The notes below the pieces were generated by a model, which did no database searches, had not been told where the DNA came from, and saw nothing but the letters and a program-made list of their open reading frames with translations. From Lama guanicoe (taxonomy: Eukaryota), in contig MU053810.1 of the NCBI GenBank assembly GCA_013239625.1, forward strand, positions 558,001 through 622,000: a stretch of DNA of 64,000 nt, read 5' to 3'. Each line of letters starts with the position of its first letter. The first letter of the stretch is position 1. Positions 2,226 through 52,072 of this stretch are shown here, piece after piece. Position numbers and translations under genes: made by a program.

Positions 2226-3913
2226 GATAAGAAGTGTGGGTATACACAGAAAACTTATTTGGGGTCAGAGAGTCACTTTAGAAGGAGATAGAAATTTGAC
2301 TTAATCCAAGCATTTTGTACTATTGTTTTGGGCAGATTATATTGTGCACTAAATGGGGTTGCTTGGTTGCCTAATTTATTTTCTCTTAAATGTCAGATCT
2401 GAAAGTTGTGGAAATTTTCCTTCTCTTGCGTATGTGTTATTAATAGAAGGGATCGAAAATCTAGATGATAAAAATCTAGATGGACAAACTTCTTTTCTCT
2501 GGGTGTAGCGCTCGCAGGTAGAGAGACAGGTATCAGCCCGTGGTTTACCTAACCTCAAAGTTTTCATCGGGGGCAGCACACTTCTTTGATTGCCTATAAT
2601 AATATAATGTAAACTATTTGTCTAATATAAACCAGTGCCACTTAAAAGTTTACCTAAAAATTACCATCTGGGATACTTTCAAAGAAATAGTTGCCTGTTT
2701 TCTTATGCTGTGTGCATATAATTATTATGCTAAATGTCTGTCTCCAAATATCCACGTTCTTTATTATTTTCATGCCTCTGTTCAGATGTCACCAAATTAA
2801 GGGCCTTTCCTGATCACTCCGTATCGATTAGCATTCATCTTCACTGAGTGCGAAGATATACAGGCTTTTTTTCCCTCTCATCCGCATTAAGAGGTTATTT
2901 TACTTTCTTTAACATATCGTCGTCTTTTTTTACCTAAGGCCTCAAGTTTTGCTTCTGTGTCAAAGTAATTCCTAGTTTTGCCCACAAAATAGTCTGCAAG
3001 CAACAATGTTCATAACGTTGTCATAACACAACAGAAATACGTGTTGCGCCTCAGGCGGACGCAGCCCCCGAGGGCAGTAGAAGCCGCAGCAGCGCAGACA
3101 GCGCAGTAACTGCTCTTGCGGCCCCGCCAGAAAACCGGGCCGCAAACCAGCCTCCTGGGCTCCGTCAGTCCTTGGGCCCAGGGAAGGGCAGTGAAGGGCT
3201 GGAATAGCCTCTGAGAAACGGAGACAAAATAACAAGGAACAGAAAATGGGGGTGAAAAGATAAGACAGAGGACCGATTCGGGCAGCCCAACAGCTAAGCA
3301 CTGCTTCCCGGAGAACAGAGAGCACGGACGGGAGGAAGTGACCCGTGAGGCAATTCAGGAAGCACAGTGCGAAGTTTCCGGGTTGAAAGGCCCCACGGGG
3401 TCCCTGCGGTAACATCGCCGTGACGGCACGCGGATAGCTGCAGGTGTCCGGAGCACGAGCCGGTCACGTGGGACCAAGACCCAGCGTGGCTTCCGTTTCG
3501 CAGCAGCATGCACACTCACTCACTCACTCGCCGGGGCTGATAAGGGACAGCAGTGGGGGGTGGGCGTGGGGCGAGGTTCACCATCTTTGCGCTCTATCCC
3601 CTCGGAAGGTTCTTGTGGAGTCAGGCTAGGCCTGGTCCGCACGGCAGGAACCTGCAGGCGTGGGTGGGGTCTCGCTGGGGAGCTCTGAGCTCTTTCCTGG
3701 GTGTCCCCAAGGCCCTTCCGCTTTGGACAGTTCTCCCAGATCTTCACGTGAGAAAAGCAGCTTTGCTGACATCAGTTTTTCCGCCATTTAAGTGCTTTGA
3801 CCAGTGACCTACAGACAGATGTTTAATTCAGAAACATGTACGTAGCCTGAACCAATCTCATTCTCTCACAGCGTGAACTTGCCCGGGGACTCCAAAGGGA
3901 AACGAGCTGGAAA

Positions 3914-37087: not shown

Positions 37088-38809
37088 CTGTTAAAAAGAA
37101 AAAAGAATAAATGCCCCTATTACAAAGTTTTTAAAGTTTTCTGTATCTCTTTACAGAATCAAACATAAATGTTCTCTTTTAATGGCAATCCATCCCATCC
37201 CCACCCACAAAATGAATTAATCATGATGCTCTCCATTCCAAATATAGAAGGGAAGAGAAATAATTCAAGGGACAAATGAATCCAAAGGTTCAAGGGCTGG
37301 TCAGTAGAAGCAAGTAACAAGTAAGCACGCCTTTAACCACGACTTTGCTTCTTCACGCCTGAATCCCAGCCCCCTTGTATACACAGAAGAGGGATCCTTT
37401 AGTGAGCATCATGACAGCAGAAAGAGCAAACACAAGCTACTACGTTACCCAAAGAATGCAGGAAGACAGAACACATCAGAGGAGGAAAGAGGAAAGCACA
37501 ACAGGAAAGGGGCAAAAACTACAGAACTGACCATTTGGGACTGAAAGATACTGACATGCGTCAGTGAGAAAGAGCACGAAGTCTTCTATAAATGGGTTTT
37601 TAAAGTACTGTATACAATCCCTACTTCATTTCATTAAGTCACTGAATTCACTGCTTCGTCGCTCTTCCACATAAGGATCTTAAAGTACTTGTGTTATTTA
37701 CAATAATCAGCCCAAAGAATGACCATTACATTTCATGAGAAAAGAACTGTTTTCCCAGACAACTCATAATATCTCAAAGTAAGATAAACCAAGGTTCTTT
37801 AAGGATAGACACTCTTGTCTGGCATGGCTTAAGTCCAGTCCTGCCAAAGAACTGGAGGATGAAGATGATAATCTCTCAGTCTTTGCCAGCGTTTGTAATG
37901 TGCAGAAAAACAAGAAGACACAGCTAGCTATTAGTTATGATAGTCTTCCCTTATCAACATTGGATTCTGTATACTAACATCATGAAATTGTTTTAAAACA
38001 AACATGGGTAATTACACGGAGGCAGTTAGCCAAAAGCCGACTATGCTCTTTTTGTGAAACCTCTCAAAGTGACGGCAGCCACTGATGTGTGACAGGAGAA
38101 TTCGGGAAATCTCAGGGGCAGATGTCTGTTACCCAAGCACCATTTCAGACTATTTGGAAAGTAGATCTGAATTATAAAAGTGTTCATCTCTAATGCAAAA
38201 CAAATGTCAATCACATCAGGAAACTTCCTAGAATCCTTCACTTCTTTTCCTTCCCACCTCAAGCCACCCTCCCAGATTTCTTGGCTTGTGATCATGTGTG
38301 TTGGAGTACTCGTGTTCAAGCAATGCTCCAGTCTGCCACTTGTCCATTCTGTTGCAGAATTTAACTCTTCATACTGCAAACTCAAGGCCAAGGGTCTCTT
38401 CTGCTTCCTTTCTGTTAATTGGCCAATGGGTGCAGTTTGGGTTTGCGGTAAACCATTCGCCCAGCAATCACCTGAACAGCTCTGTAAGTGTATTTGTGAA
38501 GAGATGCGGTGTTGAGGCTTTGGGAGAGGGCCCTCCAAAGATCCCCATTATACAAGGCCTGGTCCCTAAGGCTTATACGTGATACACGTTGAGTTTTCAG
38601 TAAACACGACAATGGCTGAAATGAAAATTCTAAGGAAAACGCTATGCCATCGATTGCCTCCTTTCCTCCCTTAAAATACACGCCATGCATCACTTTTTAA
38701 AAAACGAAACAAGTCAAGGAGCTTCATTCATCACAACTAACATGCCAAGGAAGGCTGAGTTGGGAATAAAAATATGAGTTTCCTAAGCTCCTGAAAAATT
38801 AAAAGTGGT

Positions 38810-39610
38810 CCAGGTTTCGCCCGATTCCCTGGCTCCCCGCCCCCAAAGCCTGTGGCCTCCTGCAGTGCCCTCCGCTCCCCGTCACCCCTCGAGCGCAGAC
38901 CCCGAGCCTCCGGGTCCCAGCCCCGCAGCCGGCCCGGGCGAGGCCTTCGCGCGGCTGGAGGAACCTTGGCGGAGGCCCTCGGCAGAGGCCCCCGGCCCGC
39001 GCCCTCCGCAGCGGCCCCGTGCGGCCCGCACCTCCCCGGCCCGGCGTGGGGTGGGGGGGCGACCCCGAGCGGGCGCTCGCCCCACCGTCCGCGGCCCGTC
39101 TGCGTCCGCGCCCGCGGCGAGAGCCGCGCCGCCGCTACTCACTGCCCATGGCGGCGGCTGGGGCGGCCCGGCGGGGCCCAGCGGACTCGGCACGGCCTTC
39201 GCTCGGGTCCCGCGGCTCGGGCCTCGGCACCCGCTCGCGACGCGCTCCGGCCAGCCCGGCGCAGGCTCCGCCCAGGGCCACGTGACACACGCTCGGCCCC
39301 GCCCCTTGACGAGGCCCCGGCTGTTGGCCGCCGGCGCCGCTGACGTCCGCCGCGTTGCCATGGCCACCGTCGGTGCTCAGGTGGGCGTGCTCCTCAAAGG
39401 CTGGGAGCCTTTGAGGCCAGGCGGCCGGTGCCCTCCTCCTGTGAGCACGTCTCCGAGCTCAGTGACCAGCAAAGGCCTTCTCCTCCACCGCTGTGTCCGC
39501 TCAGGGCCGCCGGGCCGGTCAAGACCTGGCCAAAGCGGCCACCCCAAGTCTGTGGCGGGGTGTTCGGTCCCCACGACTGGGGCTGAGACGCCCCCAGAGC
39601 CGGCGTGACC
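38810..39610. promoter_or_regulatory. SEC61A2 CpG-island promoter
   Basis: Very high GC and CpG density around exon 1; GC boxes, GCCACGTGA (39277), TGACGTCC (39341), X-box-like GTTGCCATGGCCAC (39354). Confidence 0.9.
39143..39149 (-). CDS. SEC61A2: SEC61A2 exon 1 coding part (ATG GGC A)
   Basis: gccgccgccATGG Kozak context followed by a gtgagt donor, inside a CpG island; summed CDS is 1431 nt (476 aa). Confidence 0.93.
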
Positions 39611-40229
39611 CAAACAGCCTATTTATTTTGCTTCGATCTTACTGGAACCACTTGAAAATTTTCAAAAATTTGTGACGCTGGTTTATAGTTAATAGCTTAC
39701 GAACTTTTTTCACTGTCAACTTCCTACATGCCTTCTTTAGCTTCTCTGAAATACAGAGATCAGGATTTTGTCCCTCTGAGCTAGTCTCTTTTGCCCCCTC
39801 TTGTACAGCGTAGTATAAGGGAAAGTGTATGGTCCTAGGAATCTGCTGGCCCTACATTTTAATCCCTCCTACTACTTAATGGCTTTGGGCAATTAATCTT
39901 TACGAGCTGCATCAGTAAATTAAGGATAATAATAGCCACCTCCTACAGGTGTGAAAACTAAATGAACAAACTATTGGCACATAGAAGGCCTTCAAATTTA
40001 TTTTCCTTACTCAAATTGTAAGTCTCTGCAATCGAACTTCTGAAACAAGCTATTTCAAAGGTCACTTAATGACTTATAGTCACCAAATCCAATGATCTGT
40101 TCTAAGGCTTAGATCTGTGTCCAAGAAGGAAGCAAAATATTTGGGTGTGCACACACACACACACAGTCTCTCCTAATCACACTCTAGCCAGGCTCCTCTG
40201 AGCCTTTTCTCCACTAGGTTTTACCTTGG

Positions 40230-49035: not shown

Positions 49036-49676
49036 AGAATTTTAAGTGGGCCCTCAATGCCCTTAGACTTACTATCCTCTGTTTCCCTAATTCACTCATT
49101 CTCCTCCTCTTCAGGTGACTATTTCACCTGATAAACCCAGGATCTCCTCCTTCATCATCATTTCCGCTAATAACCCAAGAGTATTTCCTCAGACCTTTAC
49201 TACAACACCCACCACTTTCTAGCTCTGCCTTCAGGTTATTACCACAGATGACGTGCCATGCTCCTGTCTAGAGCAGATCCAATCCCTTATGGACAGAAGG
49301 ATGGTAGATGGACAGGTATGTGACAGGACAAATATAATAAAATATTAATAGCAGAATGGAGAGAGTGGGCATATGAATATTCATTGAACAATTTTTCAAC
49401 TTTCCTGTACGTTTGAAAGTTTTCATAAGAAAACATTAGGTAGTAATAGGCATAAAGAGGCAATGGTAGTGATTCTTATCAAAAGGTAACAATGGTGATT
49501 TCTGGGTTGTTACCTAAAATTTTTTAATAGTCACAGATCATTTTATAAAAATACTATCATTACTCGGATCTGGGGTTGGTCCCTGTATCTCTGTTTATAA
49601 AAAGCTCCTTAGATGATTGTGATGATCATCTTGGTTCAGGAAACACTGATCTTTGCCGCAGAACAACAACTTTCGA

Positions 49677-51043
49677 CTCCTTCCCTCCCTCCAGCCGGCC
49701 TGGGTGCGTGGGCGGCGCGGCGGCCCGGCCCGGGCGGGGGCGGGGCGGCCTGGGGGAGGGGCGGGGGCAGCGGTGGGGGCGGCGGCCCGCGCCCCCAGCC
49801 CCCGCCCGCTGAGTCCCGGGGGCCCCGCCGTGGCCGAGGCCATGCTCTCCGTGTTCCCTTGCACGCTGCTGACTCCCCCTTCCCCAGGCCGGGCCTGGAT
49901 TCCCGGGGGGTGGGCGGCCTCCTGAACTCCTTCGCGCCAGCTCAGGGTCACGCTCAGAGCCCCCTGCGGGTCGGGTCTGAGCTCCAGTCCCGCTTCTTTG
50001 CCCCCCAGGGCTGCGCCCAGGGTCCCTTCCAGGCCGCGCCCCTCCAGGTGGGCTGCTCCCGGTTCTCGCCGCCGCGGCCGTGGGCGCCCTCCCGTGCGTC
50101 TCAGCCACTCCCCTCCCAGCCCCGCTGAGCTCCGAGCTGGGGGGGAGGGGGAGGGGAGGACGGAGGGAAGTTCCTGGACACCATCTCCTCTTCCCCCTCT
50201 CTCCTCACCGACGCCTCACTACCCCCCCCCCAACCGCGGAGCCTCCAGAAGGGAGGGAGGAAGAGTGTTTTCTTAGGGGAATTCACTAGGTTTTAACGAG
50301 TTGTTTCTCCTGCTCCTTTCTCCTCCCCATCAGACCTGACCGCACACACACCTGTCCCCTCGGCTGTGTTGAAGCCCCCTGGACAGTGAGTGGGCAGGGG
50401 TGGCAGAGGACAGGAGCAGCCACTGCCCTCACTCCCTCTCCTCTCTGTAACCCCCTGCCTCGAAGGTCCTTCTTGCTCTCCTCCTTCCAGTGCCCACCTC
50501 CACTGTCTGCTGCCCCTCCCTGGGGAGTTGGTGCTTTTTTTTTTTTCCAGGGGGAGGGAGGAGAGGAAGGAGGGGAAGCAAAGATTCTGTCCCAGAGAGG
50601 GTTAAGGTGAGATCTGAGAAGGGGCAGAAGCAGGGAAGGCAAAGATTGTACCTTCATAAGGTCGGGGTTGTTTGGGGTGAGGCCCTAAACATCATCCTAC
50701 TTGAGCATCTGTCAGGGGAAAACAAGTCAAGGGGAGCAAAAGAAGGAGCCACTAGGGCCAGAGACAGGACAAGAGATGGAATCTTAGGGGGCCAGGGTAA
50801 ATGGGGGGATTCAGGGACTAGAGGTGCTTCCTGGGGGTGGGGGGAATGCAGCTGCGGTGTCTCCCCCTTCCCTCCTCCACCCCAGCTCCAGCCCTGGCCT
50901 TTTCTTTTCATCCCTCTCCCTCCCCCACGACAGAAGCTGTGGCCCTGGCCATGTCATCGTGTTCCTGTGTCTCCTGCATGTTCCCAACCCTTCACCTCCC
51001 ATTTTGTGCAGAGCCCATTACAATACATTAAAAAAAAAAAAAA
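49677..51043 (+). pseudogene. MAZ: Processed pseudogene of MAZ (MYC-associated zinc finger), internally deleted, in DHTKD1 intron 12 and antisense to the host
   Basis: GC-rich leader; ATG at 49842 gives MLSVFPCTLL; after a frameshift GLDSRGVGGLLNSF..QGHAQSPL.VG.ELQSRFFA.QGCAQ.PFQAAP matches the MAZ N-terminus; SQPLPSQP then stop (50128) matches the MAZ C-terminus; about 0.9 kb 3' UTR-like sequence; A14 tail at 51030-51043; AACTTTCGA direct repeats at 49668 and 51042. Confidence 0.92.
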
Positions 51044-51050
51044 CTTTCGA

Positions 51051-51160
51051 GGGGTGGGTATGGCTCAGTGGTAGAGCCCGTGCTTAGCATGCACAAGGTC
51101 CTGGGTTCAATCCCCGGTACCTCCACTTAAAAAAAAAGGGGGGGGGGAGGAAATTGGAAA
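51051..51160 (+). mobile_element. tRNA-derived SINE directly after the MAZ retrocopy
   Basis: ggggtgggtatggctcagtggtagag...gggttcaatccccggtacctcc; aactttc on both sides. Confidence 0.88.
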
Positions 51161-51260
51161 GAAAAAAACAACTTTCATTGCCATAAAACGAATGGTGACA
51201 TGAACATACCCGAGACATCACATTTCCAAGGAGTATTGATTGACAATCGCATTAAGTCTA

Positions 51261-51593
<333 letters not shown>

Positions 51594-51611
51594 CTACTTA
51601 GGAGGAAAAAA

Positions 51612-52072
51612 CAGACCTGCTTCGGAGATACTGCAGCTTCCGGTCCACGCCCCCATAACAAAGCGAGCCACATGAGTGGTTTGGTTTCCCAGCGTGTATA
51701 AAATTTATGTGTATGCTTTACTATGGTCTATTAAGTGTGCAAGCGCATTATGTCTGAAAAAAAAATGTATAGACCTTAATGAAGAGATACTTGATTGCTA
51801 AAAACTGCTAAGCATCACCTGAGCCTTCAGCCAATCTTTCTGCAATAGTGACATCAGAGATCACTGATCAGGGATCACCAACAGATATAATACTAGGAAA
51901 AAGCTTAAACTGTTGTGAGAATTAACCACAACGTGACACAGAGACACGAAGTGAGCAAATGCTGTTGGAAAAATGATGCTGACAGATTTGTTCGAGGCAG
52001 TGTGGCCAGAAATCTGCAGTTCATGAAAAAAAAAACAGTCTCTGCAAAGTGCAGTAAGGTGAGGTCTGCCTG
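51612..52072. mobile_element. Internally deleted Tigger1-like DNA transposon
   Basis: Ends cagacctgcttcggagatactgc... and ...gaggtctgcctg resemble recalled Tigger1 termini. Confidence 0.65.

Follow-up and report, generated by a model that had tools for sequence, protein, structure and literature searches.

A disabled MAZ retrocopy in a camelid DHTKD1 intron and the CpG-rich island at its 5′ end

Processed pseudogenes made by LINE-1 are characterized by mRNA homology, a lost intron, a poly(A) tail, a target-site duplication, and a disabled reading frame, all of which are found in the retrocopy of MAZ described here, located in an intron of DHTKD1 in a 64,000-nucleotide stretch of Lama guanicoe DNA (the window). 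It differs from the usual processed pseudogene in having a near full-length 5′ leader and several internal deletions and in retaining its CpG dinucleotides, with GC-biased change rather than CpG decay. The island in PPP1R26P1, a retrocopy in intron 2 of RB1, has its origin in a methylated coding exon; allele-specific methylation has been shown for it, as has splicing into the host (PMC3839921). Two further lines of work bear on the fate of such islands. Inserted DNA rich in G+C and CpG is reported to be unmethylated by default, for inserts of ~1 kb in mouse ES cells (PMC4204011). In 33 of 52 mammals, many of which have an intact PRDM9, hypomethylated loci are in turn reported to show strong recombination and an elevated equilibrium GC, as against a recombination deficit in 13 of the 52 (PMC11161765); neither the text of that study nor four of its supplement files name camelids.

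The locus presented here is a genuine retrocopy, of a kind already known, and carries one testable evolutionary signature. Our search of the literature, with most subscription papers outside its scope, found neither a report of a MAZ retrocopy at DHTKD1 nor one of a retrocopy that combines GC bias with CpG retention.

A processed MAZ pseudogene antisense to DHTKD1

Positions 49677–51043 of the window are a processed MAZ pseudogene, disabled and lying antisense in a DHTKD1 intron. The MAZ-derived insert extends from 49677 to 51029 on the forward strand and is followed by a poly(A) tail of 14 A (51030–51043). An 84-residue frame has 10 protein matches among 109 candidates, eight of them named MAZ or MAZ-like and two C2H2-type (best E value of 1.6e-18). 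Compared with a placental MAZ isoform, 42 of 52 N-terminal residues are identical in the retrocopy, as are eight of the last nine; no Pfam family was found in any of the three insert frames scanned. The sole testable exon junction is that between MAZ exons 1 and 2, the position of which we set from the exon-skipping isoforms P0002, P0005, and P0165 and from an intron read-through ORF, P0159. The codons for Gln64 and Ala65 are contiguous at this junction (50030–50035, forward strand), and intron 1 has thus been lost. An exact 9-nt target-site duplication, AACTTTCGA, brackets the insert at 49668–49676 and 51042–51050, the latter copy overlapped by the A tail; the 9-mer occurs nowhere else in the window, and the duplication can be extended to 15 nt with mismatches in the A-run. 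The longer 5′ target copy (49660–49676, with 49668–49676 as its exact core) is A-rich and matches the TT/AAAA nick consensus of the LINE-1 endonuclease only loosely. The only hexamer near the tail that resembles a poly(A) signal is a noncanonical AATACA at 51022, 2 nt ahead of the A run.

The host gene is DHTKD1 on the minus strand. For one DHTKD1 exon used as query, the alpaca protein gives a 99% match covering 80% of the query and ranks above the dromedary and whale proteins, and exon-by-exon matches are slightly better to alpaca than to dromedary; on these grounds the window is placed in a camelid. Mismatch counts over the exon cores (23/325 for alpaca and 26/252 for dromedary), inflated by alignments that overlap, play no part in this placement. 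The exon upstream of the host intron (51366–51472, minus strand) has normal AG/GT ends and would be number 12 in a DHTKD1 gene of 17 exons; five further exon matches lie downstream of the insert, to ~44.1 kb. The host intron is ~3.4 kb long, of which the insert occupies 1.37 kb. The dromedary DHTKD1 model (P0032) contains ~78 intron-derived residues and ends early, a misannotation that is nevertheless usable as a rough gauge of divergence. Elsewhere in the window, translations at 14–26 kb and at 11.7–12.1 kb look like SEC61A2 and NUDT5, respectively. An initial annotation had proposed a zinc finger-less MAZ retrocopy at this position, antisense in DHTKD1. The first part is borne out by the MAZ homology, the absent intron 1, the 14-A tail, and the exact 9-bp duplication, and the second by the minus-strand exon matches and the flanking exon read from 51472 to 51366.

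The insert, all of which reads on the forward strand, opens with a 5′ UTR-like segment (49677–49841) of 88% GC that harbors 23 CpG and most of the GC boxes and that we infer to be the MAZ leader from its position ahead of the MAZ start codon. The disabled coding remnant follows (49842–50128, with the ATG at 49842). Loss of one nucleotide near codons 11–12 leads to a stop at 49923–49925, 27 codons after the MAZ ATG, and MAZ residues 13–66 continue in a second frame (49877–50038). Three deletions are found further along: one removes 13 codons of a proline-rich linker, after which residues 80–91 are present; another removes ~350 codons between two alanine-rich tracts and with them all zinc fingers; and the last removes approximately six codons near the end, with the final MAZ codons and stop at 50099–50128. 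Deletion junctions fall at 50038/50039 and at 50071–50077. The frameshift and the three deletions together mean that no MAZ protein is encoded. A 171-aa frame (49613–50128), whose ATG lies in the flank and which takes in MAZ residues 13–66, has no Pfam match and no camelid counterpart found among proteins of 148 to 2000 aa, and we regard it as a product of chance. The remainder of the insert (50129–51029) is derived from the MAZ 3′ UTR, with 58% GC and a CpG observed/expected ratio (o/e) of 0.19. Its proximal segment resembles the human isoform H3BTS8, which reads through into the UTR (27/62, E value of 6e-11), and the distal segment is presumably MAZ as well, the protein-level alignment covering the proximal part; the long 3′ UTR of the initial annotation is matched at its start. 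The early frameshift, the two smaller deletions, a nested SINE with a third target copy, and the GC-biased substitutions described below were absent from that annotation.

The large deletion was probably produced by a direct jump between GC-rich tracts. A marmoset MAZ-like entry (P0004) shows an almost identical loss of 12 to 13 codons from the linker, and alanine tracts are shortened or jumped in vole, hamster, and whale MAZ-like entries; such repeated loss in separate entries indicates that the GC-rich segments are recurrently deleted. We consider it less likely, although possible, that the template was a spliced, zinc finger-less MAZ isoform like H3BTS8 or I3L4D3, with a small second deletion across the junction. 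In seven of seven primate isoforms of the cluster, the alanine tract of the last exon is indeed spliced to this position in exon 2, and the left break of the insert falls within ~2 codons of that join, with the right break just beyond the tract. However, the isoform junction is a different one, the insert lacking residues on either side and rejoining in the normal frame; jumps between GC-rich tracts also occur in the unrelated MAZ-like entries P0003, P0004, and P0153; and a zinc finger-less MAZ isoform was found only in primates. While the human isoforms H3BTS8 and I3L4D3 resemble the insert in combining the MAZ N terminus with the last exon in the absence of zinc fingers, the insert has another junction and frame and is unable to encode that protein. 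As separate observations, the primate isoforms (P0001 and P0011–P0016) pass from exon 2 into the alanine tract of the last exon at staggered join points and may be real splice forms or template-switch products. In addition, five MAZ-like entries from marmoset, beaked whale, vole, hamster, and reindeer (P0004, P0007, P0025, P0153, and P0162) look like independent decayed copies, several of them with deletions in the same GC-rich segments.

A tRNA-Ala-derived SINE with an A/G tail (51051–51157, forward strand), one of 12 copies in the window, begins directly after the 3′ target copy of the retrocopy and is closed by a third copy of the target sequence (51158–51176, forward strand). The three target copies are compatible with insertion of either element first; the SINE-first order takes one event fewer, while in the retrocopy-first order the A tail offers a good nick site. 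The element is presumably vic-1, a name used for a camel SINE in PMC3531059. All six ARAGORN tRNA calls in the window (17861–62373) fall on SINE copies. Within the nested element (51051–51176), two of three AT-to-GC changes create CpGs, and the tail contains an unusual run of ~11 G.

Eight DNA-type runs from three studies contain 0.54 to 0.69 of 152 words sampled from the insert, which places most of the insert in sequenced animals; one of these runs may be from the source animal. The other 16 of the 24 rows have a share of only 0.06 to 0.17, six of them recorded as RNA, and these low-share rows are counted neither for nor against expression, nor for dating. A share of 0.63 is expected if the entire GC-rich 5′ part is missing from the contigs, and the best run reaches 0.69. 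The best public contigs thus come close to the share expected without this part, and the bases of 49677–50130 therefore rest on one assembly. Drop-out is a plausible reason for such an absence, since many MAZ annotations are without the same 5′ region (six entries are labeled “partial”).

Composition, substitution pattern, and age of the 5′ island

The CpG island core coincides with the 5′ part of the insert (49677–50130; 454 bp, 79% GC, 47 CpG, o/e of 0.67), in contrast to an o/e of 0.19 in the 3′ UTR part of the same insert. The narrower interval highlighted in the initial annotation, 49690–50130, has 47 CpG in 441 bp, 79% GC, and an o/e of 0.68, and the insert contains seven of the 14 GGGCGG and five of the 20 GGGAGGG sites of the window, so that the intronic island proposed there, with abundant CpG and both types of site, holds up. 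The island meets the usual thresholds but is weaker than that at 38741–39690 (o/e of 0.90). The window as a whole has a mean CpG o/e of 0.40 and 12 island-like stretches. For a mammal this background is high, and outside the strongest island several 2-kb bins reach 0.45 to 0.64. That strongest island, at 38741–39690, holds 106 CpG and probably serves the next gene on the minus strand as its promoter; a 700-bp island-like stretch lies at 2961–3660 (46 CpG, o/e of 0.76), and a CpG-rich stretch at 51351–51700 (21 CpG, o/e of 0.74) covers the DHTKD1 exon and upstream intron ~300 bp from the 3′ end of the insert.

Substitutions in the copy can be polarized by the conservation of the parent. MAZ residues 1–64 are identical in eight of eight placental MAZ entries (primate, rodent, and other); two marsupial entries differ at two positions, and two MAZ-like, probably decayed entries differ more. 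A beaked-whale MAZ-like entry has the conserved residue at all 14 positions changed in the insert. Because this region is near-invariant in placentals, the 14 residue changes are assigned to the copy. A camelid MAZ protein was sought by protein searches and not found; the ancestral state is that of the other placental MAZ entries rather than of the camelid parent, and only amino acid–changing sites are polarized. Over 89 aligned codons, the 14 differing residues correspond to a minimum of 16 base changes in 195 amino acid–changing sites (8.2%), a count made without the ambiguous codons 11–12 and 84 and the two before the last nine, two of which were added back in a recoding test.

These 16 changes comprise 10 AT-to-GC changes, three GC-to-AT changes, and three G/C swaps. 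The AT-to-GC share expected is 0.28 if mutation favors AT 1.5-fold (p = 4e-4) and 0.37 if it is unbiased (p = 0.004), in a test that is post hoc and small (13 informative changes); five codings of the ambiguous codons give p values from 3e-4 to 0.0095 and an equilibrium GC of 0.82 to 0.89. The equilibrium GC of the retrocopy island is 0.86 versus 0.42 in the 11 other SINE copies, which show 25 AT-to-GC and 41 GC-to-AT changes (66 in total) when polarized against their own majority row. Relative to these SINEs, the AT-to-GC rate in the copy is raised (10/69 versus 25/396, p = 0.025) and the GC-to-AT rate lowered (3/126 versus 41/462, p = 0.012), and both shifts fit what GC-biased gene conversion would predict. 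A SINE ~760 bp upstream shows no GC bias (five GC-to-AT and two AT-to-GC changes), while the adjoining downstream SINE has AT-to-GC and GC-to-AT changes in a ratio of 3:0 (p = 0.06). Sense-strand A-to-I editing was rejected as a source of the bias, T-to-C changes (four) being as common as A-to-G (three).

CpG decay has left little trace in the same sites. Among the 16 changes, only that at Val16, assigned by hand from its codon context, is a CpG transition, and one of 19 scorable CpG sites is hit with 18 intact, as compared with 19 of 24 CpG positions lost in the 12 SINE copies of the window (Fisher p = 1e-6), although SINE loss may partly reflect subfamily differences. A model with methylation (10-fold) and no conversion predicts that 7.3 of 16 changes are CpG transitions (P = 8e-4). 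Conversion at the estimated strength (B ~2.2) makes a methylated island compatible with the CpG count (P = 0.16); strong conversion would thus also shield methylated CpGs, and CpG retention and GC bias are not independent signals.

Intron-derived stretches of the dromedary model differ from the window at four of 80 codons, or ~2.2% (0.6–5.7%) over two lineages, whereas the retrocopy has diverged by 8.2% in one lineage (3.1% without the AT-to-GC changes). On this comparison, the copy is probably older than the split of camels and South American camelids. The lineage-specific origin suggested in the initial annotation is then best understood as probably camelid-wide rather than recent, and CpG retention through youth alone, which that annotation had put forward as one half of the case against it, fails with ~8% divergence and one of 19 scorable CpG sites hit.

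Explanations for the island

The account that we prefer, with our belief and our doubt evenly balanced, is that the 5′ end of a dead retrocopy turned into an orphan island, unmethylated in the germline and under biased conversion. Spliced MAZ mRNA was reverse-transcribed, presumably by the LINE-1 machinery, and inserted antisense into the DHTKD1 intron in a camelid ancestor, probably before the camel/South American split. GC-rich, low-complexity segments were lost, probably through microhomology jumps during copying or through later slippage. The G+C and CpG content of the 5′ 450 bp may be high enough for default resistance to methylation, in the male germline at least, and escape from methylation would have avoided CpG decay. 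An open, unmethylated patch would then have attracted meiotic recombination, and GC-biased gene conversion would have added G+C, the proposed cause of a bias seen over 13 changes. Transcription is assumed from base rates to be incidental, leaving DHTKD1 not materially altered.

The most serious competitor, which we regard as possible but doubtful, is an inert and largely methylated pseudogene that owes its bias and CpG retention to other sources: a past PRDM9-type hotspot or region of high recombination, a GC-shifted intermediate template, or in part base errors. Methylation combined with strong conversion fits the CpG count (P = 0.11–0.16), the window has a high background, with an o/e of 0.40 and 12 island-like stretches, and the public contigs give the 5′ part no second confirmation. 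Literature base rates point the same way, in that somatic methylation is reported to be commonest among intragenic islands (21–26%; PMC2944787) and only ~3% of expressed retrocopies are reported to inherit a parental promoter (PMC4772013). Other observations speak against it. A region-wide effect fits poorly with the SINEs of the window, which decay with the usual AT bias; 10 changes in 69 A/T sites would call for long-lasting conversion, which short-lived PRDM9 hotspots would supply poorly; the 10 AT-to-GC changes include seven transitions, in both directions of strand (four T-to-C and three A-to-G), unlike sense-strand RNA editing; and a substitution error of 8% would be implausible in an assembly.

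A bolder form of the germline-unmethylated island, which we hold with still less confidence, is that the retrocopy seeded a self-reinforcing camelid CpG island that escaped germline methylation purely through its composition, now acts as a PRDM9-independent hotspot in DHTKD1, and gains G+C and CpG by conversion.

Two functional readings that follow the initial annotation are unsupported. We judge it improbable that the island is a maternally methylated germline differentially methylated region (DMR) whose promoter, active on the paternal allele, disturbs DHTKD1 by interference, truncation, or splicing into its transcript. The arrangement of an intronic, antisense, truncated retrocopy with an island does recall PPP1R26P1, and the low CpG decay expected of a locus unmethylated in sperm is compatible with the signature seen here (PMC3839921), which a constitutive island would explain equally well; the insert also contains four acceptor-like sites on the host strand. 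On the other side, simple pattern scans found the host strand of 49600–51200 free of donor-like motifs, no host-strand AATAAA or ATTAAA in the insert, and no ZFP57-type hexamer in the insert, with one in the flank at 49654. Camelid MAZ is presumably autosomal, given the conserved content of the X, and the reading frame of the copy is dead. Human MAZ lies in 16p11.2 (PMC11211608). The four imprinted mouse retrogenes are reported to have X-linked paralogues, two autosome-derived intronic CpG-island retrogenes are reported as biallelic in testis (PMC1796624), and most sister retrocopies of the same parent in the RB1 study are described as fully methylated (PMC3839921). The precedents cited in the initial annotation differ in their bearing, RB1/PPP1R26P1 being the closer and the Mcts2/Nap1l5 class being X-derived, unlike autosomal MAZ with its dead frame. 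Least probable of all is an active promoter yielding an antisense RNA with the MAZ 3′ UTR that serves as a miRNA or protein decoy or as a repressor of DHTKD1: the leader, GC boxes, 3′ UTR, and A tail do stand in transcript order and initiation is reported at 42 to 44% of orphan islands (PMC2944787), but the only hexamer near the tail is noncanonical and 2 nt ahead of it, and such an RNA would need an abundance rivaling that of the parent MAZ mRNA.

Relation to known systems

As a pseudogene, the retrocopy is ordinary, and its value is that of a test locus. The upkeep of island GC by biased conversion and the birth of hotspots are usually studied at old promoters under selection, whereas for the MAZ copy a conserved parent reveals the ancestral state and there is no coding constraint. 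The locus bears on whether a new island can give rise to a recombination hotspot where PRDM9 is presumably present. A self-reinforcing island, if true, would provide a dated natural experiment on the birth of islands and of default hotspots, as well as a candidate germline DMR in mammals distant, as a family, from the mouse and primate models.

In its architecture, the MAZ copy resembles PPP1R26P1, which is likewise truncated and noncoding, carries a CpG island, and runs opposite to the host gene in whose intron it lies (PMC3839921); the MAZ island comes from the 5′ end of its parent, while that of PPP1R26P1 comes from a coding exon. Mcts2/H13, Nap1l5/Herc3, Inpp5f_v2, and U2af1-rs1 are also described as intronic and as overlapping a CpG island, but these four imprinted retrogenes are X-derived and likely protein-coding, in contrast to the autosomal parent and dead ORF of the MAZ copy (PMC1796624). 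The retrocopy island is less than half the length of the ~1-kb synthetic islands of PMC4204011. Finally, default hotspots at hypomethylated islands are reported to share with the retrocopy a raised AT-to-GC and a lowered GC-to-AT rate; they are ancestral promoter-like loci measured in bulk (PMC11161765), whereas the retrocopy offers a single island, inserted and presumably neutral, in which 13 changes are informative.
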